DNA from: Nemertoderma westbladi
Lineage: Eukaryota > Animalia > Xenacoelomorpha
Assembly: GCA_032718475.1 (NCBI GenBank)
Contig: JAUCBJ010002088.1
Location: forward strand, 1 to 60,961
Direction of reading: 5' to 3'
DNA: 60,961 bases
Under the pieces are notes generated by a model. It had not been told where the DNA came from, ran no database searches, and saw only the letters and a list, made by a program, of their open reading frames with translations. Numbering within the stretch: position 1 is the stretch's first letter; each line of letters begins with the position of its first letter. Below, one piece after another: positions 1,122 to 30,103 of this stretch. The position numbers and the translations under genes were made by a program.

Positions 1122-1203
1122 GGGACCGAATTGTCCGGGACCGAATTGTCCGGGACCGAATTGTCCGGACCGAATTGTCCGGGACCGAATTGTCCTGCTT
1201 CCC
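1122..1203. repeat. 15-bp tandem array (GGGACCGAATTGTCC x5), possibly one end of a DNA transposon
   Basis: Five copies (one lacks a G) ending in TGCTTCCC. Such arrays occur in termini of some MuDR-type elements; no partner end seen in the window. Confidence 0.7.
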
Positions 1204-2306
1204 GATAAGGCTATGTCCTTGTACCAAAAGACTACCCAGGAATGTACCCAGGCTGCCATAAGAGACAAAGTTATTCTGTTGTTCTAAGTTTCTTCTGCTT
1301 TAGCAAAGAACTGGTTACTTGATAGGCAGAAGAAGCACAGCCTGGCGTCTAATTATGGAACTGAGAATAAAGATTCCACTGACGTAGATCAAGGACTTGG
1401 GGGAACTCCTTGTCCGGGGGACATCAAGAGCTGCTACAACAGCCTTTCATCGTGAACCACCTGTCCCTGAGGTAAATATCGCCCCAGCTGTACTCACAGA
1501 GGGCATTGAAGAATTACCAACGACACCACCACATCTTCACCAGGCTCAGAAAGACAGAGTATTTTAGTGGCAAGATTGATTCATGAAATTGATAGAATTT
1601 GGTTTGGGGCCAGATGTATCTTTAAAGGGAAGCGGCGGTGCCTAGTTTACCACTGATATTTTACCGCCGAACATGGAGCACCAGATGGGCAACTACATCG
1701 GAACATCGCTGTGGGGAACGAAGCTAGCAGTATTTGGTGTCCCTACGCAGATGACCTATCGATTCTCTCTCTTTATGAACATCAAAAGAGAGAGCGCATG
1801 TCACAGTGTAAGAAACGCTATAGCGCAAAAAATTAAAGGAATAGATACTAACGCTACAATGTACATAACTATATACAGTGTTTGATCCCATAACTTTACA
1901 GTGTTGTGGCTTAATTTACACGCACTACCAATGTTCGTTCGGCCAAAGCCGGAGGCAACCCGAAGGCTCCTCTTTCGATAATCGGCATGCTGCATTGCAG
2001 CTGCATTTTAAGAATGCTGTGCCGGCTTGTCAACAAAATTGCACCGCCACAACTCCCTATCACCCTTGACATTTGCTAGATCATCCGCATCTTTAAGGCC
2101 AGTGTAACAACAGCCAATGACGAGGCAGAGAGATCAGCCACTTAGAATTGTCACGTTTTGATCTTGATTTATGTTATAAAAAAATGTAACTCAATGGGGT
2201 GCTACCACTATTATTATCCACTTTACTCTGATGATACTTCCTTCAATTAATTAAAGATACCTCATGCCAAACATTTAATAAACTAAAGAAGTCTTCCAAG
2301 ATTTCC

Positions 2307-2636
2307 TTGATATCCCAATCTAATATTTCTTGCAAGGATCTTCACAAACTCACCATTTTGATGGTGAGAGATTCCCATGTAAGGAGGTTATTGTCTTTTA
2401 TGAAGGTAGAGAGGATTGATTTTGGTTTAGATGATGGAACATACCAGGTAAAAGTAATATTTGAACCAACTTGCTACACAACTGGAGATTTCAACAAATT
2501 CATTCAATATTTGGAACACAATCCATATGTAACTATTGTTTCTCTTGGGGGTAATTTACGCCATAAGCCAACTAAAGACTGCTTAGAAATGGTGAAGACA
2601 TCAATTACCCTATTGAGGAGATCATTCTATTTTTAA
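2307..2636 (+). pseudogene. Possible SGNH/GDSL hydrolase remnant
   Basis: ILMVRDSHVRRL resembles block I (GDS) and VSLGGNL resembles block III; no block V seen. The copy at 6597 is cut by the BEL insertion. Confidence 0.35.
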
Positions 2637-3223
2637 AAAATACGAATTTTAGTAATATAGGAATACTTTTGAAATAGTAGAATTTCCTATATTTATTTCA
2701 TTAGACTAGTAGGCCTAATATGGCCTTTACCTGAACTTGACTGATTTTAAATTATTTTGCATTCATTATCAATAGGTCTGGGCCTGTTCTACAGGAACCT
2801 ATTGTTCACCTAGCCAATCCCAGCCGTTCTGTTGCCACTGATGGGCACACCAGCTACCGTGGCATTGGCAAGACCTGCACCTGCATCACGACATTGTAAA
2901 CCACTCAAACAAGAAAGGCCCTAGGTGGTAGACAATGGTCTACATGATAACGAAGCTGGAGGTTTAAATGATTTAAAATGTGTGCAACCCCATGTTGACA
3001 TACAGTATAACTCAACATGGGATTCAGTGGATGCTTAATCCTTCACGCATGCCATACCAAAAACTATGGTCCTGTTTGAAATGTTAAGGTGGACCTTTCT
3101 AAATAAATAAAAACCATGTAAAGTTAGATCATTATCTCTAAAAAACATTAAGTGAAGTTTTTCAAAGTTTTTCAAAGTTTTTTTTTTTAAAGTAAATCTT
3201 ACTAAATTTGTCTTTTTGGTACT

Positions 3224-3484
3224 ATGGAGTACTTTATTTGCCCCTATGATGCCACGCATAGGATTCATTCGGAGAAATACGTCAAACATCTAAGAAAATG
3301 CCGCAAGAACTTTCCTGGCCAAAAAATGGTACAGTGTCCCTTTGAAGTTGCACATAGCTTCAGAGAAGCCGAAAGGGAACATCATCTAACATTTTGTGAA
3401 TATAGAAATAGGAGCTCCATTTTTGAGAAATCAAAAGAAGAGAAAAAAGTGGAGAAGAAAGGAGAAGATGAAGGATTGGTGTGA
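3224..3484 (+). CDS. GTSF1/Asterix-like protein with two U11-48K-type CHHC zinc fingers, 86 aa, intronless
   Basis: CPYDATH-x9-HLRKC and CPFEVAH-x9-HLTFC match the C-P-Y/F-x3-H-x9-H-x3-C tandem at the GTSF1 N-terminus. Confidence 0.85.
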   Translation: MEYFICPYDATHRIHSEKYVKHLRKCRKNFPGQKMVQCPFEVAHSFREAEREHHLTFCEYRNRSSIFEKSKEEKKVEKKGEDEGLV

Positions 3485-5402
3485 TGATGCGATTCTCCGC
3501 ACCCGACCTGTTACCATTGCGATTTAATTATGAGAGTAGTATAAATTGTTATGTAATTATTATTGGTGTATAAATTGTATGTACTTGGCGATTAATAATT
3601 GGTGCAGACATGTATATTGTATTATTGTTCCTATTGTATTGTATATTTCATCTGCTGTAGTACAATCTATTCATCTCACGTCCCTATCTGATTGATTTAT
3701 GTCAAATTAAATTGCCTTTGGCAACATTATTTGATACAAATCGATTGATTAAACAATTAATTAATTGTTTAATCGACCAATTAATTAATTGTTTAATTAA
3801 TTAATGACCTACTTAACACCCAAGGTGCGAAGTGGGACCAACTGTCGCTGAAGTAGGGTAAACTATTACTACTGTTGGCATTGGTGGCGCCATCAGTGAT
3901 GGCGCCGGCGGTGGGGGGGGGGGGGGGGGGGGGATTGTGACAGTGGTGCCAGCGCCACCGGTAGGAGTGGCGGGTACCGCGGAATCTTTTCCTGCGCGGA
4001 CTGCAGGGGGGCATATGGTTGGATTTTTGGGATTATGGGTTTTTGAATTTTTGTATGTGTGTTTAGTAGACAAAATTTTTAGAACGTGTAGATAATTTTG
4101 ATGTAGCATAATAAAAAATCAGGGCTGACCAGTGACCATGCCAAAACACAAGTTACGTGACAACAGTAATCGTATGATAAAACTTTCATAATGTTTTTAA
4201 TATTGTACGTTTCATAGAATGGCTGCTCATAGGCAGATCGTCGATCTGCGCACTCTAACTCAGCGGAGGACGTTGATGGAGGGAAGGTTCCTCGAAACAA
4301 GGATCATGCACATAGTAACACCGGCGAAGAGATTTAACACTAAAACCACCAATGAGGGAGGATATTCCAAAAAGCCAAATTTGGGATATAATACGATGAT
4401 ATATTTAATGTAAGTATTTCATTCCATATAATAATTGTTATTGATTTAAATGTAAGTAAACTAACAGGACGTCCTACAGACAATTTTAGGAAATTATGCT
4501 TGAGTCGGATTTCAAAATGCTCTTATCGGTAAATGTTTTTAATTAAAAGTAGGACTGTGCTTTTTTTCCGGGTGTATATACTAAATTACGTTCATTTGTG
4601 TGAGTTCAGTATGTTTTGGTGACAAAATATTTTATATGTTTTCATTTATGAACAAAATTGTATTTTATACTATATAGCGCATTGAATGATTCAATCAACA
4701 CAACGCAGTTAGAGGTAAGTTCAATGGATACAACGCGGTCAGAGGTAGGTTAGAGATTGAGAATTAGAAAAAAATTAGAGATTGAGATTATTTATTGAGG
4801 ACATTTTGACAATGGAATTATAATAATCGAACACACTTTGAAGCCACTACTTCATACATCATACCAAAAGTGCCCCTTGAAGCCCAGCGGTCTTTACTAC
4901 ACTGCCTTCCCTTAGTGCGATACGCGCGATGTTCTCAAGATGGCGCATAATACGGTATAGCTATACCGTTTACATATATAATATATTATTTCATTAATTT
5001 TATTGGGATACTAGTGCGATAGTTGACAGGTAGAGTGTGTTGGTCAACCAGTTTCATGGAATTTTCTACCGTTCGTTTAATTATGTTCTTGCTACCGTAG
5101 CTGAAATTAGTTTGCTATATTTTTTATTTACAGTAATTTAATTTTTATTAACTTTTATCTTTAGAAAAATTGTAGGATATTTCTTTTATATTTTTATCTA
5201 TTCTGCAGTGGTTACATACAGACATATCATGTGTCAGCTAGAATATATTAATTTGCATTTATTAATTGCTTTGTCTAGTACCTCCGTTAACTTAAATTTA
5301 ATAGTACAGTGATAATAAATATAGTTGTGGTTGTATTGGGAATGTCTAGCATTCGGTTCAGTTAATAATTTGTTTTAGAAGTGTGCTTGTCTCTGTCAAC
5401 AC

Positions 5403-5556: not shown

Positions 5557-5834
5557 TTCAGGCTGTTGATTTTTCTGTACTTATATAGGCCGAGATTTAT
5601 CAATTATTAACTGTATTACTTATTAACTGTATCACTTCGTATACTTCGTATTTAATTGTATTTGCTGAGTTAATGATGGAAAATTCGATAGGCCTATGCA
5701 ATCCCTACTATCCCTACCCATACCAGTATCTGTACCCGTTCCCGTTCCCGTACCCATACCTGTACCCGTCTCCTTCATACCCACCTTCATACCCACCTCA
5801 ATCGTTCCTGTCTCCTTCGTACCCGCATCCCCCC

Positions 5835-6904
5835 CTCAGAAAGACAGAGTATTTTAGTGGCAAGATTGATTCATGAAATTGATAGAATTTGGTTTGGGGC
5901 CAGATGTATCTTTAAAGGGAAGCGGCGGTGCCTAGTTTACCACTGATATTTTACCGCCGAACATGGAGCACGAGATGGGCAAGTACATCGGAACATCGCT
6001 GTGGGGAACGAAGCTAGCAGTATTTGGTGTCCCTACGCAGATGACCTATCGATTCTCTCTCTTTATGAACATCAAAAGAGAGAGCGCATGTCACAGCGTA
6101 AGAAACGCTATAGCGCAAAAAATTAAAGGAATAGATACTAACGCTACAATGTACATAACTATATACAGTGTTTGATCCCATAACTTTACAGTGTTGTGGC
6201 TTAATTTACACGCACTACCAATGTTCGTTCGGCCAAAGCCGGAGGCGACCCGAAGGCTCCTCTTTCGATAATCGGCATGCTGCATTGCAGCTGCATTTTA
6301 AGAATGCTGTGCCGGCTTGTCAACAAAATTGCACCGCCACAACTCCCTATCACCCTTGACATTTGCTAGATCATCTGCATCTTTAAGGCCAGTGTAACAA
6401 CAGCCAATGACGAGGCAGAGAGATCAGCCACTTAGAATTGTCACGTTTTGATCTTGATTTATGTTATAAAAAAATGTAACTCAATGGGGTGCTACCACTA
6501 TTATTATCCACTTTACTCTGATGATACTTCCTTCAATTAATTAAAGATACCTCATGCCAAACATTTAATAAACTAAAGAAGTCTTCCAAGATTTCCTTGA
6601 TATCCCAATCTAATATTTCTTGCAAGGATCTTCACAAACTCACCATTTTGATGGTGAGAGATTCCCATGTAAGGAGGTTATTGTCTTTTATGAAGGTAGA
6701 GAGGATTGATTTTGGTTTAGATGATGGAACATACCAGGTAAAAGTAATATTTGAACCAACTTGCTACACAACTGGAGATTTCAACAAATTCATTCAATAT
6801 TTGGAACACAATCCATATGTAACTATTGTTTCTCTTGGGGGTAATTTACGCCATAAGCCAACTAAAGACTGCTTAGAAATGGTGAAGACATCAATTACCC
6901 TATT
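5835..6904 (+). repeat. Local duplication, copy B, left part
   Basis: Matches 1545-2614; ends at the CTATT target-site duplication. Confidence 0.95.
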
Positions 6905-7445
6905 TGTTAGCTTATTCAATCCCGCCAACACCCCATAAAGTTATAAGCCGATAAGCAATATTGGGAGCCACGAGATTGGGCAATTAACCAACTCGTGCCA
7001 TCCCAATAAGAGTGGGAAGGAAGCACACAATAGAGGGTCAGGGGCCAAACCCCTAACCCAGAGAGAACAGGTGGAGTGAACGGGAATACTCCACGGGGCG
7101 CCAACAAGGGTACTAACCAATCAGAGGGGGGAAAGGCATCGATTGAGTAGCAGTAAGGCCACCGTGCAATATAACCAATAACCTATTAATCAGTGATTCA
7201 GTTATCTCAGTGTAGCAGTGCTAGCGTAGGTTAGTAGTCAATTAGTTTAGTTAGGGGATCACGGGACTTTAGTTACCGTATCCCGCCTTGTACACATTAT
7301 ATCTATATCTATATCCTATGCCCTATTATTATTATACACCGAACTTCAGAACTCAGTTACTTTATTTCACCCTTATACACGGCGGGGACGCGTGGACTAA
7401 ATTACCACATCGGATAAATCGGGATCCCTCCTGGATCCCGTCACA
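6905..7445 (+). repeat. 5' LTR (541 bp)
   Basis: TGTTAG...GTCACA. By eye only one substitution versus the 3' LTR (CTAGCGTAGG vs CTAGTGTAGG). CCAAT ~7117, TATAA ~7170, initiator-like TCAGTT ~7198. Confidence 0.97.
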
Positions 7446-7525
7446 GTAACTAAATCCGAGCTGCCGCCCCAGTTAAACTCTAAGAACTACACTGCTAGCT
7501 AGCCGAACTCCACCGACCAGACGAG

Positions 7526-10500
7526 ATGAGTGAATCGGGCGAGACACCGACGCGGACCCCGGACGAAGATCAAACGATCCGCGAGGCCGCGACCAACGGC
7601 GCGCCGATGTCGCCGGCCAGCTACCGGCCGAGGGCGACGAGCGGCCCACCGAAACGGCGACGGTGGGGCCGACGGTGCGACGCCGGACGCGAAGAGACGG
7701 AGGAGAGATCGGTACCGATGTCGCCGGCCAGCTACAGGCCGAGGGCGACGGACGGCCCACCGGAACGGCGACGGAGGAGCCGCCGGTACGACGTCGAACC
7801 CGGAGGGACGGAGGAAAAGTCGGCGAGGAGGACGTCGGGGTCTCTGAGCGACTTCGACGAGCCTACATCGCGGCCCGGAGGATGCTAAAGGATGCCAAAA
7901 AGGAAGGGGCGAAGGTAGACGAGGTGAGACTGAGAAAGCGACTAGGTGAGTCGGATAGACACTTTAATTATCTAATACGTTTTGGGCAGAGAGAACTAGC
8001 CGAAACGAGAGCACATGAGATTGCCGGGGAACTGTTTGAACTATGGGAATGTGGGAGTATGGAACCTAGCGTAGCGTCAGTGTACATAGGGCCATACTTG
8101 GTCGATGCCCGGGGAGTAAAACCGGCGGGTTGGAGGGGACTCGAAGGAGGCGAATCCGAGGTTAACCCCGAGGATTCGGCCTCGTCGGTCGGAGAAAGCT
8201 CCGGGAAGCGGGGGAAAGTTGGTAGGTCGGGAAGGCGGGGGAAGTCCGTCGTAACCGATAAGTCTGTTACATCCTCCGCGAAAGAAAGAGCGGTGAGGGA
8301 AATAGGTGCCGCATACCGTCTCAGCATGGCAGAGCAAGGTCATAGAGAAATGAAGGAACGGCTAGAGGAGGGGAGAGTGCGGTTAGAGAGGGAAACGGCA
8401 TTGCTTAAAGAAACCGGAGAGAGGGCCGAAAGGGCTTTGAAAAGCCTAAGGGAGTATGATGAGATAGAGGAAAGGGAGTGTAGGGAGCGTGAGGCGAGAG
8501 AGGAAAGGGAACGCAAGGAGCGTGAGGCGGAACGCAAGGAGCGTGAGGCAAGGGAGGAAAAGGAACGCAAGGAGCGCGAAGTGAGACGAAGGGAGAGCAT
8601 TAAGAGTGCTGCAGAGTCGGCCATCAGGGACACCCAGGAGCGTGAGAGGAGAATGGCAGAGACTGAAAAAGAGCGCAAGGAATTAGAGAGACGGCAGAGT
8701 GAGTTTGCGGGAGATAAGATTAGACGGGCGCACGAGCTGCAACTGGTGCGAGCGTCGCCGTCTGAAAGCGGGGCCGGCTCGAGTATTTTTAGGGAGCCGG
8801 GGGCCGTAGATACATTTATTAATACCCCACTGACAGGGACCGCACGACAGACTCAAGACTGGTGCGACCGTACGGGCGGGGGGGGGGTAATAATAATAAT
8901 GGTACAGTAGACGTTGTTAATATTGATAATACCGTATGGGACAACACTAATCAAACCTTTATTACAGGGAATGCTTTACATAGTGGTAGTAATTTAAATT
9001 TAAATCAGAACGCCCCTAGTATTAATGTAGGAAATAATTCTGATATTAATGTAGCTACGCAAAATAATTCAAATAATCAAAATAATAACCCAGATTCGAA
9101 TCTACAAAATAATTTAAATAACGCAATTACGCAAAATAATTCGAATAATTTAAATAATGACCTATGCCCGAATTTACAAAATAATTCAGATAACGTAGTC
9201 GTGCAGAATAATACAAATAATTTTGTTCCAAACGAGCAAAATAATTCCGTTTCCAATATGGGTGCTATTAATGTAAACACGTCGGGCCTACATAACCAGG
9301 GAGCAGAGGGCCTGGTAGGCCACGTAGTTAGTAGACAGGGAGCAGAGGACCTGGTAGGCCACGTAGTTAGTAGACAGGGAGCAGAGGGCCTGGTAGGCCA
9401 CGTAGTTGGTAGGCAGGGAGTAGAGGGCCTGGTAGGCCACGCAATAGCAGAGGGAGAGGCGGGGGTGAATGGACCCGACCGCAGTAGGGTTGATGTGTCG
9501 ACTAGAGAGGTATATAATAGCGGGGAGAGAGGTAGCGAAGTTAGATGTAGCGAGTGGGGGGGGGCTACGAGGACCCCACAACAGAGAGTTAGCGGCGAGA
9601 GGGGGGGGGGGGCAGGGAGTGTCCCACAGCCGTCAGCGGATAATGCAAGGGCCGAAATAGGTAAACCGCAACGACCGGCGACGGAAAGTAATAGAGGGAT
9701 CGCGAGTATCCCCAGCGGCGTGCGACCGAGCAGAGAGAGACAGGTTGACGTCGCGAGAGGGCGGACGAAGCGTCGGGCCCGATCAGAGGAGGGAAGAAGA
9801 ACAGTGGGGTTTAACCGGGAGGTCGACGAGAGATCTCGCGAGCGGGAATATTCCACTGATAGGAGAAGAAATGAAGACAGTAGTAGAAGTATCGCCGCGA
9901 ACGATAGAAGAACGAGGACGGATAGCGAGCCGTCGATAGTCGAGATGAGAACGGAGAGTCAGTGGGGTCGGACTCCGGGAGATTGCCGTCGCCCCGGAGG
10001 GACGCGACCCGGCGAGGCGCACTACGCGCCGAGAGAGGGGTACGCGATGTACCGGTACGAAGATGAGAGCAGTAGAGAGGGGGGTCGAAGGGAAACTTTC
10101 CGACGGGATATACCTACCGGTCGAGAATACGGTAGCCGCGGGGAGGATTATTCGAGAAGAATAAACTTCGATCCCGAGCAATACATGCAGACTGTAGGGC
10201 ATACTGTAGGTCTTACTGCACATACCGTAGGCCATACTGAGAGAGGCAATGTAGGCGATAGGATAGCGTGGACAACGGGATTAAACCCGGAAGTCGCGGA
10301 ATACATACCGGCGAGTAGGTCAGAAGCTGATAGGCCTATACCGGTACCAGCACAGCAGTATGACTACAGCATGCAGGGACATAACATATACCCAGGGGAG
10401 GGGGGAATTATTGCGGATAGGTGCATGGGCCCCAACATATTAACATCAACCCCATTACCAAACATACCGGTGGGGGGGGGGACAGGGTGACATTCCCCCA

Positions 10501-11826
10501 TCACAATGTCAACAATATACCCCGATGGTAGCAAGAATGGCGAGACCCCTGGACGAAAACAGATCGTGTGACACAGATATATGGAGGGGGCCGCTACCCC
10601 CAATGACATACCCAAGCCAGAGAAAGTCAAGAAGTAGGACAGACGGAACGCACCAGACAAGGGAAACTATACAGCACCCGTCGAATCCATTGGAAGCGCA
10701 GGCGATAGGGATGGCCACGTTGATCGATGCTTTGAAAACGAGGATCGAGTTACCACCCGTGGAACCATTCAAGTTCGACGGGAGTAGGCCGGAAGAATAT
10801 TTACAGTTTCGGCGAATGTATAGTAACGAAATACTAACAAAAAACTTGACGCAGGCGGAGTGCCTAAAGTATCTACAAGTATACACGGGAGGCCCAGCAT
10901 ACGACATCGTGAGGCAATATCAAGGAATAGAGGGCGGCTTCACGACAGCATGGCGGGCACTGGATAGGGAATACGGGCACCCGGCCAAGATCATCAGGCA
11001 GACGCTGAGAGGCATAACATCGGGTGGCCTACAGGACAACCCCGTTAGCATTAAGACGTTTGCTAACAAAGTCGAAAAGGCGCTAATCGTGCTGAAGACG
11101 CTAGACGCGCCGTACGAGCTCAACGCGTCCAATAACATCACCACGATAGCGCAGGCACTACCAAACTGGCTGCGCAACAAGTGGAGGAAGATCGCTTTCT
11201 CCACTCGAGACAAGAAGGGTGCGGAACCAGGTTTAGAAGAAATGTCAAACTTCTTAAATTACGAGGCTGAACTAATAACGGACCCAGTCTATAGTGAAGA
11301 TAGCCTGGGAAAGGGACCAAAGACGGATCACTACAGGCCGAAACCAGAGCACAATACATCAAACGCATTGCCGAGGCTCAGGCAATCATTGCCATACGCA
11401 GCGATGCAGGGGACTGCAAGTCCACAGGCAAACGAAGATAAGACAACATCATGGAACGGACAGGGGAACAATAACAACATGAATAAACATAACCCCAGTA
11501 CGTCCAGTAGGCCAAATCCAGTCAATAAGAATAGTAGGGACTTTGGTACGAATATAACTGCGATACGCAATGCATTGTATAAAGAGGGCTACGACCCAAA
11601 GAGCAAATGCCAGTTACACGCAAATGCGCTTCATAAAACCATGAACTGCAGGTACTGGCAGGCGCTACCGAGGCAAGACCAGATAGATTACGCGTCGAGC
11701 AATAAAATCTGCTCGCGATGTGTGAAGAGTGGACACAAGGCCAGGGAATGCCAAGAGAAGCCGGTCAAGTTTGGCCAAAGGAGAGGCCAAACGATGGCAA
11801 CGAGCACGGTAGGGGCGAAGAAGTGA
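7526..11826 (+). pseudogene. gag: BEL gag, very long, split by a 145-bp deletion and frame changes at G runs
   Basis: Pieces 7526, 7663-8910, 8862-10490, 10525-11826. Coiled coil, Asn-rich tract, 39-bp repeats, Pao gag core FDGSRPEEYLQF, Cys-His motifs CQLHANALHKTMNC and CSRCVKSGHKAREC. Frame changes at G runs near 8900 and 10475. Confidence 0.85.
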
Positions 11827-14800
11827 GGCACGGTGTTACTTGGAGTAGTACCGGTGCGAGTGATCGGGGAAGGCAATCGATCAGTAACAACACTAATGCT
11901 GGTTGATAGTGGAGCTGCCTTCACATTAGTCGAGGAATGGGTAGCCGAAGAAATAGGATTGAGAACAAGGCCAAGCAGGATGGCGGTAACAACCATCTCT
12001 AGCAAAGATGAGATCCTAGAGATGAGGACAGGACGGTGCGCAATTGCAGCAGTGGCACCAGGATGCGATTATGGGGCAACCATCGACCCCATCCAAGTAA
12101 TAGAGTCAATTAACATCAATGCCAGGCGGCCAACCAACATCGAGGTCGAGCAATACAAATTCCTGGACAACATTGACTTCTCGATCCCAGACGTGGACGT
12201 TAGGAAGGTATCCATCATAGTAGGAATGGACTGCCCGACGGCCCACGAAAGAATGCAAACGGTCTTCGGCGAAGACAAGCAGAGTGACCCGGTGGCTATA
12301 TTAACACCATTCGGGTGGACGCTGAGTGGTCCAATTAAGAGCAAGATACCATTCAGGATGTCGGAGACATCAGGATGCATGTTCGCGGGAACAATGCAGG
12401 AAATGGGTGATGAGGGAGCAGAGGAGCAGCTTAAAAGACTGCTCAGACAAGACTTCGAGGGACTGAAAGAGACCGGGGTCGGGACCTCGGTAGAAGACAA
12501 ACAGGGTCTACAAAGCGTGGAGGAATCGATGACGTGTGATGAGGGGCGGTATACAATAGGAATGGTATGGAAACTACCGAAGATACCGCTACCCGATAAT
12601 AGAGGGATGGTACTCACGAGACTTCGTAAGCTGAAACAAACACTAAAACGGAGCCCCGAGAAGAACGAGTACATTCACAAAACAATTAAGAAGTACGTTG
12701 AGAAGGGATGGGCCGTGGAGTTACCGGTCGACGAGCCGAACACGGACAGGACATACTACCTGCCACTCCACGTAGCATTAGACCCAAAGAAAGGTAAACT
12801 TAGGATGGTAGTCGATGCATCGGCAAAGACCGACGGAAAGTGCTTAAACGACTACCTACTAGAAGGCCCAAACATATACAATTCGGGCATAGAAGTACTA
12901 CTTAGATTTAGGAATGGGAAACACGCCTTCACGTGCGACATAGAAGGCATGTTCAACCAAGTCCGTGTAACAGAGGAAGACAGCGACAGTCAACGCTTCT
13001 TATGGTATAACGGCGAGGAAGAACCGCCTATAATACCGGCATATAAGATGGTAGTACAAAACATGGGGGCCAAGTCGTCCTCATTTACGACGACTATGGC
13101 AGTAAGAGACACGGTAAAGGGGAAGGAAGATAGATATAGCAGTAGGGCCGTCGATATGATCCGACGCGGCTTCTACGTAGACGACGGTATGGAGTCTGGA
13201 AATACGGTTGAGGAGATACTGGAAACAGGGCGCGAGGTTCGCGACATCCTGAAAGGATCCGGCTTCAACCTGACCAAATTCCAATCCAGTTCAGAAGAAT
13301 TTATCAAGGCAATAGAGGACAAGAAACCGGAATCGACCATGGACAACCCTACAACAGCCAAAGGACAGGACATGGCGAATAAGAGAACACAATCTCAGCA
13401 AAAGGCGTTGGGAATCGTGTGGGATAGAGGAACAGACGAACTGAAGTATCAGCTGAGCCAGGAGGGCGCAGACACCCATACGAAGAGGGGTTATGTATCG
13501 TATATAGCAAGGATATACGATCCCCTAGGCCTAGCATCCCCATTACTAGTCACGGGGAAACAGATACTCAAGAGAGTATATAAATTGAAGGATGAGTGGG
13601 ACGTAGAGGTACCAGAGGACATCAAGAAACAGTGGAGCAAATGGACAGGAGACTTGGAGAGGATGGGAACATACAACATGCCGCGAGTGTATTTTCCGGA
13701 CGGGAACATGACGAATCTGGACCTACATATGTTCTCCGACGCGTCGTTAGAGGCATACGGAGCGGCACTCTATTTGGTACAACGAGAGGGGGCTCACAAG
13801 CCCAGACTAGCCTTTAGCAAAGCTAAGTCAACGCCGCCAGACTCAGCATCTGTTCCCAAGTTAGAATTGACAGCTGCGAGACTAGGAGTTAGAGCCACAG
13901 CCTACCTAGTGGATACTATTCCCAACATAGTGGAGACACACTATTGGACGGACTCCATGGTAGTGCTTGGTTGGCTACACAACGAAAGGACGAGATACCC
14001 GATATTCGTCGCGAATAGAGTGGACGAAATAAGGGCGAGCACAGCATTGGAAAGGTGGCACTACTGCCCAACGGACGAGAACCCAGCGGACTTGCTGTCG
14101 AGGGGCGTGGAACGCCACACTTTCCTGAAGAAGGAAGCATTGTGGCAACATGGGCCACAATTTCTGAGCGTTAAAGAAGCCTGGCCGCCAATGAGAAAGG
14201 TGGAGCCGGGCTCAGAAGTGGTGTCAGAGGGAGAAGAGGGAGACTCAGAGGGAGAAGAGATATACTCCCAGATGGTGAGGGAGATTAGGGACGTGCAACC
14301 AAAGCAAGAACTACGCGATAACCCGACGGACAAACTCCTCAGCTACAGTTCTAGTTGGTACAAGACCAAGAAATTAGTGGTGTACTGGAGAGCTTTCGGG
14401 AATTTCCTCGCGGGAGTTAATAAGGAGAAGAAAACCAGGGAAACCATAGATCTGGAAGGAGCGGCCAAGGCAATAATCCGCTATGAACAACGAAAGAACT
14501 ACGGCGACGAGGTGGAACGCGTCGGTAACCAACAGCACCTCCGACGGGACAGCGAGTTGATTACGCTGTCGCCACAACTCAACGACGATGGGATTCTAGT
14601 AATGAATTCTAGGGTGGGATATAACAACAGCATAGTCGTGCCACCGAAACCCATCATCATTCCCACAGGATCGCCTATAGTCCACCAGATCATATGGGAC
14701 TCCCACAAATCGATATTGCATGGGGGCACCAACCTAACCCTCACAGAGATAAGAAGGACCTATTGGGTCAAACAATTAAGGAAGAAGGTTAAAGCGGTAG

Positions 14801-15813
14801 TGGGGCAGTGCCAGACCTGCCGACGGGCGAAGAAGGAACGAGCCATACAGGAGATGGCGCCACTACCGGCGAGTAGGGTAAGACAGCACGACCCGCCATT
14901 TACGCATTGCGGTGTGGACATGTTCGGGCCGATAAAGATCAAGGTGATGCGACACACGGAGAAACGCTACGGTATTATCTTCGTATGCAACAATACGCGG
15001 GCGGTAGGGATAGAACTCGCCCAAGATGCAACCGCATCAGCATTCATTAACGCCTTAGAAAGGTTTAGGGACCGCAAAGGTGGGACGATCGCAGTGATAT
15101 ACAGCGACAACGGCACCAACTTTGTGGGCGCAGAGAGGGAGATGGCAGAGGCCTTGGACATCTTGGAGGGAGAAGAAGTCAGGGCAGCCATGAGGAGACG
15201 ACAAGTAAAGTGGGAGAGAAGGACGCCGTATGCACCACATACACTAGGATGCGTCGAGAGACTGGTGGGCAGTTCAAAGCGTCTAATGACGAAGTTAATG
15301 AACACCCACATGGTCACTGAGGACGTTTTACGGACAGTACTTGCGAAGTGCGAGGGGATCATTAATAGCAGACCGCTATATCCGGAGAATGATGACCCTG
15401 AGTCGTTAGACGTGTTGACGCCTAGCCATTTTCTGATGGAAAGGCCAGCGACCATCGATATGCGGGGTGTAGACCCAGATGACATACACTCCCGCCAAAG
15501 TTGGAAAGTCGCTAAAGCGATAAGCGCAGAGTATTGGAGGAGGTGGGTAGAAGAATACCTACCCACGCTCCATAAGCGAAGCAAGTGGAAGAAACCGAAT
15601 CGGGAGTTAAAAGTAGGAGATCTCGTAATCGTTACGGATGATACTATCATCAACAACCAGTGGCGGTTGGCGAGAGTTGTAGGCACCTACTCCGACGAGG
15701 ACGGAAGAGTCCGATCGGTAGAAGTGCGGATAGGTGGAAAGATAGGTGCGAAAGACAGAAAAACCTACAGGAGAGCAGTAGGTAAATGCTGTCTTCTAGA
15801 AGGGGCACCTTAA
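11827..15813 (+). CDS. pol: BEL/Pao pol polyprotein (protease, RT, RNase H, integrase), uninterrupted
   Basis: LVDSGA; YVDD; FSDAS...ELTAA...TDS; HKSILHGG...CQTC; DMFG, SDNG, ERLV. Same frame as gag, separated by one TGA. Confidence 0.97.
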   Translation, partial: GTVLLGVVPVRVIGEGNRSVTTLMLVDSGAAFTLVEEWVAEEIGLRTRPSRMAVTTISSKDEILEMRTGRCAIAAVAPGCDYGATIDPIQVIESININARRPTNIEVEQYKFLDNIDFSIPDVDVRKVSIIVGMDCPTAHERMQTVFGEDKQSDPVAILTPFGWTLSGPIKSKIPFRMSETSGCMFAGTMQEMGDEGAEEQLKRLLRQDFEGLKETGVGTSVEDKQGLQSVEESMTCDEGRYTIGMVWKLPKIPLPDNRGMVLTRLRKLKQTLKRSPEKNEYIHKTIKKYVEKGWAVELPVDEPNTDRTYYLPLHVALDPKKGKLRMVVDASAKTDGKCLNDYLLEGPNIYNSGIEVLLRFRNGKHAFTCDIEGMFNQVRVTEEDSDSQRFLWYNGEEEPPIIPAYKMVVQNMGAKSSSFTTTMAVRDTVKGKEDRYSSRAVDMIRRGFYVDDGMESGNTVEEILETGREVRDILKGSGFNLTKFQSSSEEFIKAIEDKKPESTMDNPTTAKGQDMANKRTQSQQKALGIVWDRGTDELKYQLSQEGADTHTKRGYVSYIARIYDPLGLASPLLVTGKQILKRVYKLKDEWDVEVPEDIKKQWSKWTGDLERMGTYNMPRVYFPDGNMTNLDLHMFSDASLEAYGAALYLVQREGAHKPRLAFSKAKSTPPDSASVPKLELTAARLGVRATAYLVDTIPNIVETHYWTDSMVVLGWLHNERTRYPIFVANRVDEIRASTALERWHYCPTDENPADLLSRGVERHTFLKKEALWQHGPQFLSVKEAWPPMRKVEPGSEVVSEGEEGDSEGEEIYSQMVREIRDVQPKQELRDNPTDKLLSYSSSWYKTKKLVVYWRAFGNFLAGVNKEKKTRETIDLEGAAKAIIRYEQRKNYGDEVERVGNQQHLRRDSELITLSPQLNDDGILVMNSRVGYNNSIVVPPKPIIIPTGSPIVHQIIWDSHKSILHGGTNLTLTEIRRTYWVKQLRKKVKAVVGQCQTCRRAKKERAIQEMAPLPASRVRQHDPPFTHCGVDMFGPIKIKVMRHTEKRYGIIFVCNNTRAVGIELAQDATASAFINALERFRDRKGGTIAVIYSDNGTNFVGAEREMAEALDILEGEEVRAAMRRRQVKWERRTPYAPHTLGCVERLVGSSKRLMTKLMNTHMVTEDVLRTVLAKCEGIINSRPLYPENDDPESLDVLTPSHFLMERPATIDMRGVDPDDIHSRQSWKVAKAISAEYWRRWVEEYLPTLHKRSKWKKPNRELKVGDLVIVTDDTIINNQWRLARVVGTYSDEDGRVRSVEVRIGGKIGAKDRKTYRRAVGKCCLLEGAP

Positions 15814-15924
15814 ATTGGAGTTAGAGTGGAGTTTAGTCGTCCAAGTTTTGGACTGAGGGGGGTGGGATTGAGGGCGAGACGCCCTTCCCACACAAATAAA
15901 AATAAAAATAAAATAAAAATAATA

Positions 15925-16640
15925 GTTAGTTAGTTAGTAAGTATGTAGTACCTAGAGTTAGTTAGTTAGTTAGTAGGTACGTAGTGCCTAGAGTTAGAGA
16001 GTTAGTAGGTACGTAGTACCTAGAGTTAGTTAGTTAGTAGGTACGTAGTGCCTAGAGTTAGAGAGTTAATAGGTACGTAGTACCTAGTTAGAGTTAGAGA
16101 GTTAGTAGGTACGTAGTACCTAGTTAGAGTTAGAGTTAGAGGGTACGTAGTACCGATAGTTAGAGAGTTAATAGGTACGTAGTACCTAGTTAGAGTTAGA
16201 GTTAGAGGGTACGTAGTACCAATAGTTAGTTAGAGTTAGTAGGTACGTAGTACCTAGTTAGAGTTAGAGTTAGTAGGTACGTAGTACCTAGTTAGAGTTA
16301 GAGTTAGAGGGTACGTAGTACCAATAGTTAGTTAGAGTTAGTAGGTACGTAGTACCTAGTTAGAGTTAGAGTTAGTAGGTACGTAGTACCTAGTTAGAGT
16401 TAGAGTTAGAGGGTACGTAGTACCGATAGTTAGAGAGTTAGAGGGTACGTAGTACCGTTAGTTAGAGTTAGAGTTAGAGGGTACGTAGTACCAATAGTTA
16501 GTTAGAGTTAGTAGGTACGTAGTACCTAGTTAGAGTTAGAGTTAGTAGGTACGTAGTACCTAGTTAGAGTTAGAGTTAGTAGGTACGTAGTACCTAGTTA
16601 GAGTTAGAGTTAGGGGGTACGTAGTACCATTAGTTAGAGA
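15925..16640 (+). repeat. Array of ~21 GGTAC-GTA-GTACC hairpin units separated by TTAG/TTAGAG repeats
   Basis: The core TAGGTACGTAGTACCTA is a 7-bp inverted repeat with a 3-nt loop, recurring every ~30-37 bp. Confidence 0.95.
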
Positions 16641-17135
16641 GAGAGAATGAGAGGTAAAAGGGGTAAATAGGATATAGATATTAGTCAGCAGTAAGTAGAG
16701 TTAGTAGCGAGAAGGGGGCATATGAGTACAGCTGGATAAATCGTGTGGCCACACGATGCATACTGCTGTACTGCATAGGCCCACAAAGTAGGCCAGAATA
16801 TGGATTAGAGAATAGAATAAACCCATAGGCAGTAGTAGGTAGTAGGACAGTAGAATCAAAGCAAACAAACAAATAAATAGAATAGGGCTAAAATCGTAAA
16901 ATAGTGGCAACACAAGGAAAGTCGTTCTAGAACATAATAAAAGTAACGGACAGAAATTGTAAATTAGGCTGATTTACTAGCTCCGAAATTAATTAGGTTA
17001 AATTTAGCTTGAAAGGCGCAATTAAGTAGAAAGTAGGCCATTATCGAACTGTACGAAACATCTTAAATACTTCACTCATCTGTATTGCGCCTTGGTAAGG
17101 CACCACCCTGCAGGTGAGCGAGTGTAGTGTTCGGA

Positions 17136-19670
17136 ATGGCGAGTAAGCTGATCAGGAAGAGAAAGGCGGAGTCAGGAGGAAAAGAAATATTGGTGGATTT
17201 CACCGAAAGACACCCGGAAGAGAAGACGAGAGGATACTACGAGAGGTTGGAAAGGGGTCACGCGGCACGAGCGCTGCAGGATCACTTCCGGGAGGCGCAC
17301 GAACAGCAGTTGGTCGGGACCTACGGGACCCCGTCGCTGGACAACGCGATCTTCCAACACTTCCACTACGTGGTGAAAGGGGACGAGGCGAAGTTCGGGA
17401 TTCCGAAGTATCCGAGGGAATCACCGAGGAAGGACTGGAAAAGATTCATAGAGTCCGTCAACAGGGGAGGATATATGATCCTAGATGACGAGGGAACCGT
17501 GGAAGACGAAGCGGGTTCGAGACGAGGAACGGCAGGGTCGGCCAGGACCATACTCCTACATTTGGCCGCGCCAAATGGGGACATCTTCTTATTCGATCTA
17601 GGGACGTATGGGAAGAAGGACGGGCCGAAATTAGACCGGTTACCGAAAGCGGTACAAGTCTTGGTAAGAGAGAAGTCGACGACGAAAGTGGGATCGGCGA
17701 TTCGCGAGGATGCGGAAAGGATCATCGGTCCGGACGCCACCAACCTCCTGGATATGCAGAAGGTCTTTATGGCTATGACGGCACCGGATGGGTTGGGGCT
17801 AGTCGAAAACACAGGTCTATGCGGGGCAGTGGCGATGGGCCAACTATTGGGGCTCGTATGTCACAAACCGATGGACTGGGGGAAGTTTAGGGAAGAATAC
17901 GGAGCAGAACTAGCGAACTCGCTGAAGTGGGGAGCGAGACCGGGAAAGCAGGAGGTATATCAGTTTCGCAGAGGAGCGATAAAGGTATATCAGAAGCGAT
18001 ATATCCTGCAGGAGGACTGGATGATGATAAGTTTGCTTAACTTATTCATGACCGTAGTTATCGAAAGGGAACCAGGGGCATTTCTGTTATCGGGATCACC
18101 CCTAAGCTACAGGAGAGCCTTTAAGACGGCCTTTGATGGTCTGGTAGACCACCCGGGGCTGAAGGGCGAGTCGGTGTACTACAACAGCCGACATCTGGTA
18201 GACGGGGAGACAGATACACCGTATCAGAGATGGGAGCAGCTAGAGGCGGACAGACGAGAAGCAAAGCGACTGGAAGAAGTCGCTAGACGGGAGAGGATAG
18301 AAGCAGAGGAGAGGGAAGAGGAGGCCAGGGCACAGAGTTACGGCTTGGAGGAACAGGTGGGCCTAGACGAACTTCATTGGACTTCGTCAGGGAGTTCGGG
18401 GGAGTCTCTAGGGCAAGAATTGGGATGGACGGTGGGATCGCCGAAACAGTCGACGTCGGGGTTGCAAACGATGCCCATACCAGCGGGCGCCGAGGGCGAC
18501 CAACCGCCAAGGAAGTTAAGGGAGCTAGAGGGATGGAGAGCTACGGGCGAGAGTCAAGGCGGGAAGGGACATAGTGGATCCATCGGGATACCGGGATTGG
18601 AGACACTACCAGAAGAGGAGGACGGCGACGACGAGTTCGGAGAGATGCCGCCCATCGAGAGGATAGGCCACTCGGACACGGACTGGGTTGGCGGAAGGGT
18701 GGTGACAGCCAGTGGGGCGAGGGCCTTCTGGAACAGATCCGGCAAGCGGACCTGGGTGCACGAGGAGCCAGCGATGGATTTCGCGGGGAGCACCATCAGG
18801 TTGGGCGAGCAACCGGGAACGGCACCACGGATAGTATTCGGGGAGACGATGCCCGAGAGGGGCGGAGAGATCGACGTAAACAGGGAGAGCAACGTAGAGA
18901 AGTTCGCCTACCAGCGACTCCATAGACCGCGGAGATCGCTTGGGACGAAAGACGAGGTGGGACGGGAGACATTGGTACTCGGCTGCGACTACTGTGGGAG
19001 ACAGACCCATCAGGAAAGCAGCTGCCTATACCGGTTCCAACGGGGAACCTTTTGTCTCTACTGTAGAGAACCAAGCCACAGGATGGGGGCGTGTCCACGG
19101 TTGCATAACCGATGTCCAAAGTGCCACTTTCGGGGACACTACGGGCGCGAGTGCGACTGGATGAGCGACGAGGAGAAGTTCACAAGATTCGAGGAGTGGG
19201 CCGACGTCGGGGCCATGACGCGCCAGCGCATGAAGGCCCAAGAGTTCAAGTGGGGTTTCTTCCTCATAAACCAGGAGACCCACATGGAAATCATAAAGCG
19301 AAGGTTACCGTTTACCTATCAAGAGGTAGCAACGGCGGCATCGTTCGCCGGAGTTATGAACACGCAACGGTACCTGGACAGGTGGACACCAGAGAACCGG
19401 AGGGAGTTTAGGGATTTCTTGGCGGAACACGTACCAAAGGCAATGAAAATGATCCTATGGGACGCCACACGAGGGAGACAACCAGGCCATTCTGAGGGGC
19501 CACCGGCGAAGCGGTATCGGGCATTAATAACACCAGCGCCCAAGGAGCCAACGACCGGGATCAGCAAGGAAGTGGCGGCGAAGGTCCGGAAGCAGAAAGC
19601 GGATGATGCCAGAGGAACGGTGATAACCAAGAAACGGGCCAGGGAAGAGGACGTGAGGAGGAACAGATAA
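17136..19670 (+). CDS. Accessory ORF3, 844 aa: WRN/RNase D-like (DEDDy) 3'-5' exonuclease domain, acidic linker, three CCHC zinc knuckles
   Basis: ILDDEG (ExoI), LLHLAAPNGDIFLFDL, LPKAVQVLVREKSTTKVGSAIREDAERI (ExoII), LLDMQ, YQKRYILQED (ExoIII-like); knuckles CDYCGRQTHQESSC, CLYCREPSHRMGAC, CPKCHFRGHYGREC. Confidence 0.75.
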   Translation: MASKLIRKRKAESGGKEILVDFTERHPEEKTRGYYERLERGHAARALQDHFREAHEQQLVGTYGTPSLDNAIFQHFHYVVKGDEAKFGIPKYPRESPRKDWKRFIESVNRGGYMILDDEGTVEDEAGSRRGTAGSARTILLHLAAPNGDIFLFDLGTYGKKDGPKLDRLPKAVQVLVREKSTTKVGSAIREDAERIIGPDATNLLDMQKVFMAMTAPDGLGLVENTGLCGAVAMGQLLGLVCHKPMDWGKFREEYGAELANSLKWGARPGKQEVYQFRRGAIKVYQKRYILQEDWMMISLLNLFMTVVIEREPGAFLLSGSPLSYRRAFKTAFDGLVDHPGLKGESVYYNSRHLVDGETDTPYQRWEQLEADRREAKRLEEVARRERIEAEEREEEARAQSYGLEEQVGLDELHWTSSGSSGESLGQELGWTVGSPKQSTSGLQTMPIPAGAEGDQPPRKLRELEGWRATGESQGGKGHSGSIGIPGLETLPEEEDGDDEFGEMPPIERIGHSDTDWVGGRVVTASGARAFWNRSGKRTWVHEEPAMDFAGSTIRLGEQPGTAPRIVFGETMPERGGEIDVNRESNVEKFAYQRLHRPRRSLGTKDEVGRETLVLGCDYCGRQTHQESSCLYRFQRGTFCLYCREPSHRMGACPRLHNRCPKCHFRGHYGRECDWMSDEEKFTRFEEWADVGAMTRQRMKAQEFKWGFFLINQETHMEIIKRRLPFTYQEVATAASFAGVMNTQRYLDRWTPENRREFRDFLAEHVPKAMKMILWDATRGRQPGHSEGPPAKRYRALITPAPKEPTTGISKEVAAKVRKQKADDARGTVITKKRAREEDVRRNR

Positions 19671-20343
19671 GTTCCCAGATACGAGGGAGTGAGACTGAGA
19701 CTGGGACGTGGTGCGCCTGGAAGGCGCCGCATGCAACGTACGAACCATTAAGTACAAATTTAATTAATGCAAATAATCATATAAGTGCAATTCGTATGTA
19801 CGTATGTAGTAATTAGCAGTAAAATACACGATCGGAGTAAGTACTATAGTCATACAACCTTTCTCAACTAGCTAGTGGGACTGGGGGATAACTGACTATG
19901 GCACTATGGACGAGACAACTGACAATTTCACACCTCTTGAGTGCGACGGCACGAGAGGGGGGGGGAGATTCGTCAGAAGGGAAGAGACAGACGAAGTGAG
20001 GTTGAGGGACGGAATAATAGTGCGGAGTGCGGAGAGAGTGCCGATGCAGTTCCAGTGTGGGGGGGGGGGGGGGGGAGAATAAGAGGCTGAGTAAGGGACG
20101 AGGAGGTCCAAATGTGAGAGAGTTAGGGTGAGAGTGAAGGTGAGATAGGGCGAAAATGTTGGGGAAACAAAAGTTGCGTGGGAGGTGAGCGCGATCGGCC
20201 CGACATGAGACGCCAGGCACACAGGGTAGCGTTATCATACCCATAGGGGGCGGCCTGGAAAGCCGGCTCCTAGAGAAAAGAATTCCACCCCACACCCGAT
20301 ACTAGATCGGGATCCAGCGGGATTGTAACGCACTTTTAGGTTG

Positions 20344-20381
20344 ATGCTATCTTCTTACCGGGAAGATAGCATGGGGGGGAG
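20344..20381 (+). other. Polypurine tract preceded by an 11-bp perfect hairpin
   Basis: ATGCTATCTTC-TTACCGG-GAAGATAGCAT, then GGGGGGGAG abutting the 3' LTR. Confidence 0.85.
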
Positions 20382-20922
20382 TGTTAGCTTATTCAATCCC
20401 GCCAACACCCCATAAAGTTATAAGCCGATAAGCAATATTGGGAGCCACGAGATTGGGCAATTAACCAACTCGTGCCATCCCAATAAGAGTGGGAAGGAAG
20501 CACACAATAGAGGGTCAGGGGCCAAACCCCTAACCCAGAGAGAACAGGTGGAGTGAACGGGAATACTCCACGGGGCGCCAACAAGGGTACTAACCAATCA
20601 GAGGGGGGAAAGGCATCGATTGAGTAGCAGTAAGGCCACCGTGCAATATAACCAATAACCTATTAATCAGTGATTCAGTTATCTCAGTGTAGCAGTGCTA
20701 GTGTAGGTTAGTAGTCAATTAGTTTAGTTAGGGGATCACGGGACTTTAGTTACCGTATCCCGCCTTGTACACATTATATCTATATCTATATCCTATGCCC
20801 TATTATTATTATACACCGAACTTCAGAACTCAGTTACTTTATTTCACCCTTATACACGGCGGGGACGCGTGGACTAAATTACCACATCGGATAAATCGGG
20901 ATCCCTCCTGGATCCCGTCACA
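20382..20922 (+). repeat. 3' LTR (541 bp)
   Basis: Near-identical to 6905-7445; followed by CTATT. Confidence 0.97.
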
Positions 20923-22095
20923 CTATTGAGGAGATCATTCTATTTTTAAAAAATACGAATTTTAGTAATATAGGAATACTTTTGAAATAGTAGAATTTCC
21001 TATATTTATTTCATTAGACTAGTAGGCCTAATATGGCCTTTACCTGAACTTGACTGATTTTAAATTATTTTGCATTCATTATCAATAGGTCTGGGCCTGT
21101 TCTACAGGAACCTATTGTTCACCTAGCCAATCCCAGCCGTTCTGTTGCCACTGATGGGCACACCAGCTACCGTGGCATTGGCAAGACCTGCACCTGCATC
21201 ACGACATTGTAAACCACTCAAACAAGAAAGGCCCTAGGTGGTAGACAATGGTCTACATGATAACGAAGCTGGAGGTTTAAATAATTTAAAATGTGTGCAA
21301 CCCCATGTTGACATACAGTATAACTCAACATGGGATTCAGTGGATGCTTAATCCTTCACGCATGCCATACCAAAAACTATGGTCCTGTTTGAAATGTTAA
21401 GGTGGACCTTTCTATATAAATAAAAACCATGTAAAGTTAGATCATTATCTCTAAAAAACGTTAAGTGAAGTTTTTCAAAGTTTTTCAAAGTTTTTTTTTT
21501 AAAGTAAATCTTACTAAATTTGTCTTTTTGGTACTATGGAGTACTTTATTTGCCCCTATGATGCCACGCATAGGATTCATTCGGAGAAATACGTCAAAGA
21601 TCTAAGAAAATGCCGCAAGAACTTTCCTGGCCAAAAAATGGTACAGTGTCCCTTTGAAGTTGCACATAGCTTCAGAGAAGCCGAAAGGGAACATCATCTA
21701 ACATTTTGTGAATATAGAAATAGGAGCTCCATTTTTGAGAAATCAAAAGAAGAGAAAAAAGTGGAGAAGAAAGGAGAAGATGAAGGATTGATGTGATGAT
21801 GCGATTCTCCGCACCCTACCCGTTACCATTGCGATTTAATTATGAGAGTAGTATAAATTGTAATTATGTAATAATGTAATTATTATTGGTGTATAAATTG
21901 TATGTACTTGGCGATTAATAATTGGTGCAGACATGTATATTGTATTATTGTTCCTATTGTATTGTATATTTCATCTGCTGTAGTACAATCTATTCATCTC
22001 GCGTTCTTATCTGATTGATTTATGTCAAATTAAATTGCCTTTGGCAACATTATTTGATACAAATCGATTGATTAAACAATAATTAATTAATTGTT
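20923..22095 (+). repeat. Local duplication, copy B, right part
   Basis: Matches 2610-3770. Confidence 0.95.
21536..21796 (+). CDS. GTSF1-like CHHC protein, second copy with His-to-Asp change in finger 1
   Basis: Identical to 3224-3484 except VKHLRKC to VKDLRKC and the last residue. Confidence 0.75.
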   Translation: MEYFICPYDATHRIHSEKYVKDLRKCRKNFPGQKMVQCPFEVAHSFREAEREHHLTFCEYRNRSSIFEKSKEEKKVEKKGEDEGLM

Positions 22096-25584: not shown

Positions 25585-26495
25585 TCATGTTATTGCGACA
25601 CTCTGCTTCGGTTTTGTTCCATTGGCGATAGTCAAGGTCTGGCTAGTGCATAAGGTGTGCTTAGTAGGAGCAATGGGCAATAGTTCCATGGTCATTGAAC
25701 AATACATTTTGCTGCGTATGTTCAATTTATAATATCCATCTTTTCCGTGGATGACTCAAGCTTGGCTTTCATTTTGATCTCGCCATTCAATAGACTATGT
25801 ATTCTTCCTGGTGACAAAGACTTAAAATGCACTGGAAAGCCATTATCAGTGGCCGAACCAAAAGTCAGAGCACTATGCGGATTATTCACTTCGGCAGAAG
25901 TGCCGGTAGTATGCATCCAGGGTGTGTTGATGACATCCTCAAATCGATGTGCACTTTCCACCACCTGGCAATCGTTTCCATTACAGAATACCCATAAATA
26001 AGGCATCATCCCCAAGTGATTGTCACAATGCATCCTAAAAGTTCCTATAGTTGGTAAAGTGCAGTGAGCTTCAGCACTAGTGCCATCATTCTCCATTCTG
26101 CACACCTTCTTGGTACCTCTAATATTGGCAGTGACATCAATGTGCGCCCTGGCTTTCTCCAAGTTCATCACTTCATACTCCCACACGTATTTGCTCGCGG
26201 CTGCTGAGCCGCTGAGCTTGATACAAGTGCACAAAGGTCGTTCACCAAAGAGTCCACAGCCATTCCCCCACCCTCGGGATACCACTCCATTGTGACAAAC
26301 ATCGTGTTCCCTTGGCTTACAATCGGGTGGTGTGCCTCTGGGACACCCCCAATCACTTGTGATCTTGTGGCCTAGTTGGATAGGGTAAACCCTCGAAAAA
26401 GCCCATCCACCATTCATTTCTGCGTCATGGCCGGCTATGTAGAAATTTCTCTTAGGATCAGTCACACGCAGAAACTTGCATTCATCCCCACGCAA
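25585..26495 (-). pseudogene. Endogenous flavivirus-like envelope (E) glycoprotein fragment
   Basis: SRGWGNGCGLFG fusion loop with flanking E cysteines (GCP, VCH, LCTC). After a frameshift near 25740 it continues as SKMYCSMTMELLPIAPTKHTLCT, resembling the domain I/III junction. Confidence 0.9.
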
Positions 26496-29909: not shown

Positions 29910-30103
29910 TTACACACTCTTTAATTTGTGATTTGATTAGATCACCTTGTGTTTAACTAGTTTCACCTCTGTCTAACAATAGTTTTATTACACATATATT
30001 CATATTACATTATTATGGTATTTGGTATACACAGCGATATGTGAGAAGCTACATATACAGCTATATTATATATAACATAATAATTGATATATATTCATGA
30101 ACT

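Follow-up and report, generated by a model that had tools for sequence, protein, structure and literature searches.

Two GTSF1-like open reading frames in Nemertoderma westbladi DNA are probably decaying copies of an expanded intronless gene family

A short open reading frame (ORF) encoding zinc fingers of the GTSF1/Asterix type lies among transposon remnants in a stretch of 60,961 nucleotides of Nemertoderma westbladi DNA (contig JAUCBJ010002088.1, positions 1 to 60,961; hereafter the window). This raises the question of whether the ORF derives from a host gene, a retrocopy, the cargo of a mobile element or a virus-borne mimic of a piRNA-pathway factor. In mouse, finger 1 of GTSF1 binds RNA via four basic residues and three central tryptophans bind PIWI; in the triple tryptophan mutant binding is more than 60-fold weaker with the maximal rate unchanged (PMC9385479). 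Duplicates of Gtsf genes are common (PMC13650160, PMC6505081), with two to four GTSF paralogues described in moth, mouse and fly (PMC13650160, PMC9539491, PMC9808576).

The ORF, designated copy 1, occupies positions 3224 to 3484 of the forward strand and encodes 86 amino acids. A preliminary description of this DNA had claimed two complete CHHC fingers followed by a short charged tail, and these were present: finger 1 at 3239 to 3301 (+; C6, H12, H22 and C26, with the basic residues K18, K25 and K28) and finger 2 at 3335 to 3397 (+; C38, H44, H54 and C58), both with the spacing C-x5-H-x9-H-x3-C and all eight zinc ligands in place. The tail is rich in lysine and glutamate and contains no tryptophan. 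The coding part has no intron, as had been described, and its setting in transposon debris was likewise borne out. Pfam matched zf-U11-48K (PF05253), a finger shared with U11-48K and TRM13, to two stretches of the ORF (E 6.6e-10). Comparison with PDB sequences yielded mouse GTSF1 (6x46, E 2.8e-12) and GTSF1 (9nhb, E 1.9e-10); U11-48K scored nine orders of magnitude lower (E 3.7e-3), its match covering one finger only, and TRM13 was absent from the seven PDB sequence matches at E ≤ 1. At E ≤ 0.001, an AlphaFold model built from 70 aligned sequences (mean pLDDT 79.9) matched two PDB folds, each of GTSF1, the top one being 9nhc chain E. The GTSF1/Asterix-like label, against which closer kinship to TRM13 or U11-48K proteins had been weighed, is therefore upheld by the PDB sequence matches and by both fold matches of the model.

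A HMMER protein search with the 86-aa ORF returned 628 matches at E ≤ 0.001. Identity to copy 1 never exceeded 52% in the best 150 of these, and nine of the ten top matches examined carried animal names (tick, tunicates, octopus, sea hare and flies), the top named matches including gametocyte-specific factor 1-like proteins. A word-index protein search with the same ORF produced no candidate, none of 592 pattern matches from a metagenome scan was confirmed, and Rfam gave no matches. The predominance of animal names also bears on the proposal that the gene is the endogenous remnant of a GTSF1 mimic once carried by a virus. A flavivirus envelope-like fragment (PF00869, E 2.4e-10) does lie some 4 kb beyond the second copy of the gene described below, but no viral gene was recognised inside the duplicated segment that holds the two copies, none of 234 pattern matches in IMG/VR contigs was confirmed by a single-protein scan that reaches close relatives only, no BFVD fold match was found at E ≤ 0.001 and phage records gave no match. 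A viral origin is already largely refuted and is regarded as extremely improbable.

Mouse GTSF1 (6x46), GTSF1L and GTSF2 likewise possess tandem CHHC fingers, with approximately 41% identity over the fingers. The positions matching the basic RNA-binding residues R26, R29, K36 and K39 of mouse GTSF1 are H15, K18, K25 and K28 in finger 1 of copy 1, so that three of the four remain basic; the first of these positions is lysine or arginine in just 46 of 140 homologs. A basic RNA-binding surface is predicted on finger 1 of copy 1. The window copies differ from the mouse protein in a linker of 11 residues as opposed to 13 and in having no in-frame tryptophan. Bombyx Gtsf1 and Gtsf1L (9nhb-9nhc) are, like the window ORFs, short two-finger proteins with a short tail (PMC10711660, PMC9808576). 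In the tail of BmGtsf1L, W99 is reported to be needed for Vreteno binding and for full Ago3 binding (PMC10711660, PMC9808576), and the segment that would match it is lost in the window ORFs. In-frame tryptophan was absent from both window ORFs and present in contigs of divergent family members, which have two or three tryptophans in an acidic central segment as in mouse GTSF1. Having GTSF1-type fingers and GTSF1 as best match but no in-frame tryptophan, the window ORFs are derivatives of the GTSF1 family and, judged by the tryptophans, not functional members.

An acidic tryptophan motif, DWCDD, had previously been noted in the +1 frame of copy 1; its position at 3474 to 3488 (+) and the stop of that frame at 3527 were both confirmed. 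The accompanying proposal of a frameshift held as far as the shift itself is concerned; its cause is not a one-base insertion or deletion. Contigs from other DNA samples, here called X1, X2 and X3 after their runs, contain divergent members of the family whose loose ends depart from the window sequence: in X1, two do so at 3441 and two at 3468, and in X3 one does so at 3468. Beyond these points the frame is kept and the translation runs on as I-K/E-x-P-A-A-W-G, where x, judged by eye, is W, C or R. In one X3 contig, 36 bases replace window positions 3469 to 3472 and the sequence rejoins at 3473, bringing DWCDD into frame, which supports the earlier suggestion that the motif is a displaced piece of the PIWI-binding region. 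The junction can be placed at 3461 to 3473 (+), where the divergent members carry the extra PAAWGE segment (a net gain of 32 bases, 36 for 4, in the one contig) and where a short direct repeat, GGAGAAGA, accompanies the loss of approximately 32 bases in the window copies. Since the segment present in divergent types is missing from both window copies, which have the tail junction in common, the frameshift of copy 1 is best read as a shared deletion of approximately 32 bases relative to a paralogous contig and not as a one-base change or error. A purine-rich 25-nt GT...AG 'intron' at 3449 to 3473 was rejected as too short, the shift being explained by the paralogues.

A second deletion is likely at 3481 to 3488 (+), judging from one X1 contig of which 30 of 65 letters were read. 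One frame out of three in its loose end, upstream of 3481, gives DVQTY... and then a tryptophan and two stops, and this reading resembles the motif that follows the acidic tryptophan in several homologs. Given such a deletion, the residues after DWCDD would be 3' UTR read-through, which the same loose end makes likely. Two observations speak against this account: a further X1 loose end, at 3458, would be out of frame at face value, and the intact tail was pieced together from 30-letter loose ends, with no full-length intact copy in one piece. The acidic tryptophan motif occurs in 102 of 117 long-tailed homologs at a median distance of 41 residues from the last cysteine (27 or fewer in 1 of 102); the corresponding spacing is approximately 27 in the shifted reading of the window and 38 in the +32 reading, a comparison that was set aside as a weak test because the linker is shorter by 27 bases in the contigs that leave at 3441. 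Summed depth over 3464 to 3477 was 128 in X1 and 227 in X3, which suggests that the deleted form is present in other samples, perhaps in several copies; among the best 16 of 87 pieces none bridged the deletion junction under a 31-base rule.

These contigs also decide against a single host GTSF1 whose tail lies on a downstream exon or is masked by sequencing error. The window sequence does come from an assembly, but its two diverged copies have the same junction, and paralogous contigs of several sequence types run intron-free into the tryptophan segment. With a second copy and several intron-free types in evidence, the single-gene reading is refuted, unless the contigs come from another organism in the runs, and is scarcely credible.

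The second copy of the ORF lies at 21536 to 21796 (+) and shares the tail junction of copy 1. The coding parts of the two differ at two positions, both non-silent: H22D, which deprives finger 1 of copy 2 of a zinc ligand, and V86M, a change that at once makes the out-of-frame tryptophan codon of DWCDD a stop. Self-comparison placed copy 1 within a duplicated 2.2-kb segment (1545 to 3772, +). The other copy of this segment is split into a left half at 5835 to 6904 (+; 5 differences in 1070 bp) and a right half at 20920 to 22098 (+; 97.6% identical), the latter ending within the downstream repeat. The copy number and flanks of the 2.2-kb unit had been singled out for checking; flank depth in contigs is low, and the segment is a recent local duplicate, low-copy and not a mobile unit. 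An LTR or TIR element was considered and rejected for this unit, with no TG...CA ends, no terminal inverted repeats (TIRs) and low flank depth. The low-copy part of the segment includes a fragment resembling GDSL/SGNH hydrolases (2235 to 2636, +; Atlas rank 3, a lead only, with no Pfam match), which weakly matches an ORF at 45115 to 45759; in copy 2 of the segment it is this fragment that received the BEL/Pao insertion.

That insertion, which separates the two halves of copy 2, is a 14-kb BEL/Pao LTR retrotransposon (6905 to 20919, +) with DUF1759 gag, Peptidase_A17, integrase and DUF5641 domains and a 5-bp target duplication, CTATT. Its 538-bp LTRs show 1 difference, and the element is young. 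Between the LTRs, after pol, is an ORF of 844 aa (17136 to 19670, +) with a weak CCHC-like region, probably the 'ORF3' that the preliminary description paired with the GTSF1-like gene as two small-RNA-pathway-like genes in one nest. That pairing does not stand: lying between the LTRs, the 844-aa ORF came with the retrotransposon, and the two do not form one module. Its likeness to 3'-5' exonucleases comes from language-model features only (Atlas rank 4; PF01612 on 50% of members), and the small-RNA-pathway label, for which this Atlas lead is the sole source, is not established. Pfam gave no match for the ORF, no homolog was found for residues 60 to 340, a single-sequence fold (pLDDT 32) gave no usable model, and a literature search on BEL elements with an exonuclease yielded no clear match. 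A tandem repeat array occupies 15921 to 16645, between pol and the 844-aa ORF, and a related, more diverged BEL/Pao-like element is found at approximately 56400 to 60961.

Three DNA runs from two studies contain a GTSF1-like stretch, and their contigs were placed on 1200 to 4400 and 3170 to 3560; the comparison over 3170 to 3560 drew on two of the three runs, X1 and X3, and on the best 16 of 87 pieces. Run X5 was left out, its contigs covering just 11 of 30 bins and none of the coding part. Among these 16 pieces, seven of the eight X1 contigs overlap at 3362 to 3385 and seven of the eight X3 contigs at 3322 to 3351, and the overlapping contigs listed are gap-free and 82 to 100% identical. At least seven overlapping sequence types of the GTSF1-like gene are therefore present in the two studies, as against three genes in mouse. 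This number implies at least four loci for one diploid animal; some types may be alleles, and samples may be pooled. Among the coding differences between types, 24 of 37 were silent against 18% silent sites (binomial P 5e-10), as counted from the best 40 of 66 difference rows with 3 non-coding rows omitted and each site classed singly from the best-supported rows. None of the 37 listed differences altered a zinc ligand. The GTSF1-like family thus appears, from the pattern of its differences, to have been under purifying selection.

Summed contig depth, which is not equal to copy number, was 47 to 61 in X1 over the flanks at 2163 to 2590 and 2698 to 2911, 355 to 421 over the coding part, approximately 1,200 over 2912 to 3125 and 16,000 to 18,000 over 3661 to 3874. 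By this contrast the 2.2-kb unit is low-copy, whereas the gene and its adjoining repeats are not. The upstream repeat (2927 to 3125, no strand assigned) has a summed depth above that of the gene, and 2926 is where contigs from two studies depart from the window sequence; the downstream repeats (3520 to 3874, no strand assigned) have a higher to very high summed depth and include an AT-rich palindrome at 3744 to 3801. Divergent types could be traced only approximately 50 nt upstream of the ATG. Among the best 12 of 19 loose ends, none within the coding part began like a splice donor, and no intron-bearing parent was found among the contigs at ≥80% identity.

Taken together, these data make it somewhat more likely than not that the window ORFs are decaying copies, made at the DNA level, from a host GTSF1-like family that is intronless and has expanded, and not a decoy of a transposon or virus. 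The gene is likely to have been multiplied as DNA, with its promoter, in a repeat-rich region. In the proposed sequence of events, an intronless GTSF1-like gene would have multiplied to at least four loci, after which a deletion of approximately 32 bases, bounded by short direct repeats, would have arisen in one lineage, probably along with a second deletion, removing one or two tryptophans and shifting DWCDD out of frame. Local duplication of the 2.2-kb segment holding this deleted copy would have followed, and the BEL/Pao element would then have inserted into the flank of copy 2. Decay fits the finding that, besides the deletion common to both, either copy shows a single additional defect: an altered TATA box in copy 1, whose ligands are kept, and the loss of a zinc ligand in copy 2, whose TATA box is kept. 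The apparent occurrence of the deleted form in other samples fits persistence as well as decay. Counting against the host-family reading, higher-depth repeats adjoin the gene on either side and contigs leave at 2926, as if it were carried by an element. By analogy with mouse GTSF1, intact members may use finger 1 to bind RNA and the tryptophan segment to dock on PIWI, so that target slicing would be faster; any products of the window copies would at most be weakly activating.

Upstream of copy 2, 92 nt before the ATG, is a TATA box with an initiator-like TCATT (21413 to 21446, +), the only such site on either strand of the window; the pair appeared in 0.9% of 20,000 shuffled versions of the 336 nt that precede this copy. 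At the corresponding promoter-like site of copy 1 (3100 to 3133, +) the initiator-like TCATT is kept and the TATA box is changed at 3102. The TATA and initiator pair argues against the suggested frameshifted retrocopy, which would have been processed from a host GTSF1 with introns and frameshifted later. The intronless coding part among retroelements would agree with such an origin, an intronless asterix duplicate is known from D. pseudoobscura (PMC6505081), and the whole family could stem from an old retrocopy. Neither a downstream poly-A tail (the longest A run in 3481 to 3900 is 3) nor a target-site duplication was found, although an old retrocopy could have lost both; the best 12 of 19 loose ends include no splice-donor-like one in the coding part, and the coding contigs listed are gap-free. 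A retrocopy is considered very unlikely. The D. pseudoobscura duplicate, an intronless extra GTSF1 copy like those of the window, is described as single, expressed, testis-biased and thought to be a retrocopy (PMC6505081), whereas here there are several types, a promoter-like site and damaged window copies.

A serious alternative to decay within a host family, although an unlikely one, is that the gene and its promoter are carried by a non-autonomous DNA element (Helitron-like or Pack-type, approximately 2927 to 3870) that spread intact and deleted passenger copies. Contigs X1 record 3 and X3 record 21 match 2672 to 2926 and then leave the window, a possible empty site, and in 107-bp bins the summed depth is at or above that of the coding part across 2912 to 3874. 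Hairpins occur at 2928 to 2943, 3744 to 3801 and 3886 to 3906. Helitrons begin with 5' TC and end with a 3' hairpin followed by CTRR. An X2 contig joins 2962 to 3655 with 31 other letters, but the short side of this joint comprises only 21 letters. No TIRs and no exact target duplication of 7 to 8 bp were found around the gene, and contigs read straight across the one 8-of-9 repeat match, at 2919/3819. The 3' repeat contains the end of copy 2, the divergent types can be followed just approximately 50 nt upstream of the ATG, and the silent-biased divergence fits host genes under selection.

The tryptophan-less 86-aa protein might alternatively be a selected decoy that keeps its RNA-binding fingers without a PIWI dock and so dampens piRNA silencing for nearby elements. 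Copy 1 does retain all eight zinc ligands and three of the four basic positions, the deleted form seems to be present in two other studies (depth across 3464 to 3491), and the existence of piRNA-factor mimics has been put forward as a hypothesis (PMC6367137). Set against this are the lost zinc ligand of copy 2 and the changed TATA box of copy 1, the finding that the mouse protein without its tryptophans is a weak activator and is not reported to inhibit (PMC9385479), and the missing link to any transposase or viral gene. The decoy is judged a poor prospect, as is the combined scenario, at least as improbable, in which a mobile element captured a whole piRNA-pathway gene together with its promoter and distributed it through the genome, a tryptophan-less subfamily being kept to dampen silencing. 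If true, the latter would be the first genuine case of a transposon carrying a piRNA-factor mimic. A search of article listings covering few subscription papers showed no GTSF1 described as highly multiplied or as borne by a transposon.

Under the host-family reading, the pair of damaged GTSF1-like copies would represent ordinary gene birth and death, within a family whose seven or more intronless types, with mostly silent differences, contrast with the two to four GTSF paralogues of moth, mouse and fly. Such a family would offer a natural series for testing tail sequence against PIWI partner pairing. Should a mobile element prove to carry the gene, or the tryptophan-less form to inhibit slicing, the transposon-mimic hypothesis would become directly testable.

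Several other features were observed in the window. The flavivirus envelope-like fragment is a 259-codon open frame at 25725 to 26501 (-; PF00869, E 2.4e-10), likely an endogenous viral fragment, for which a comparison with longer proteins gave no match. A short repeat at 1981 to 2105, 6271 to 6395 and 27080 to 27205 has extreme summed depth in four runs (approximately 1e6 in X1) and represents a SINE- or MITE-like element of very high abundance. Imperfect tandem repeats with open frames occur at 802 to 1093 (rich in Val, Arg, Gly and Asn) and 5700 to 5830 (rich in Pro and Tyr), neither with a Pfam match below E 0.1. Pieces resembling a tyrosine-recombinase retroelement lie at 28880 to 33466, with RNase H-like and phage-integrase-like ORFs that both fall below the Pfam cut-off. 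Two 6.5-kb blocks (40273 to 46776 and 49277 to 55776), 99.6% identical and 9 kb apart, contain BEL-like pieces and a GDSL-like ORF and reflect either a recent tandem duplication or an assembly duplication; the sequence at 34892 to 36190 is likewise repeated at 47986 to 49284. Finally, two long ORFs of 322 and 366 aa at 36877 to 39463 (-), without significant Pfam match, are flanked by inverted copies (36188 to 36530 and 39943 to 40275, 84% identical), and this region is likely to be a DNA transposon.
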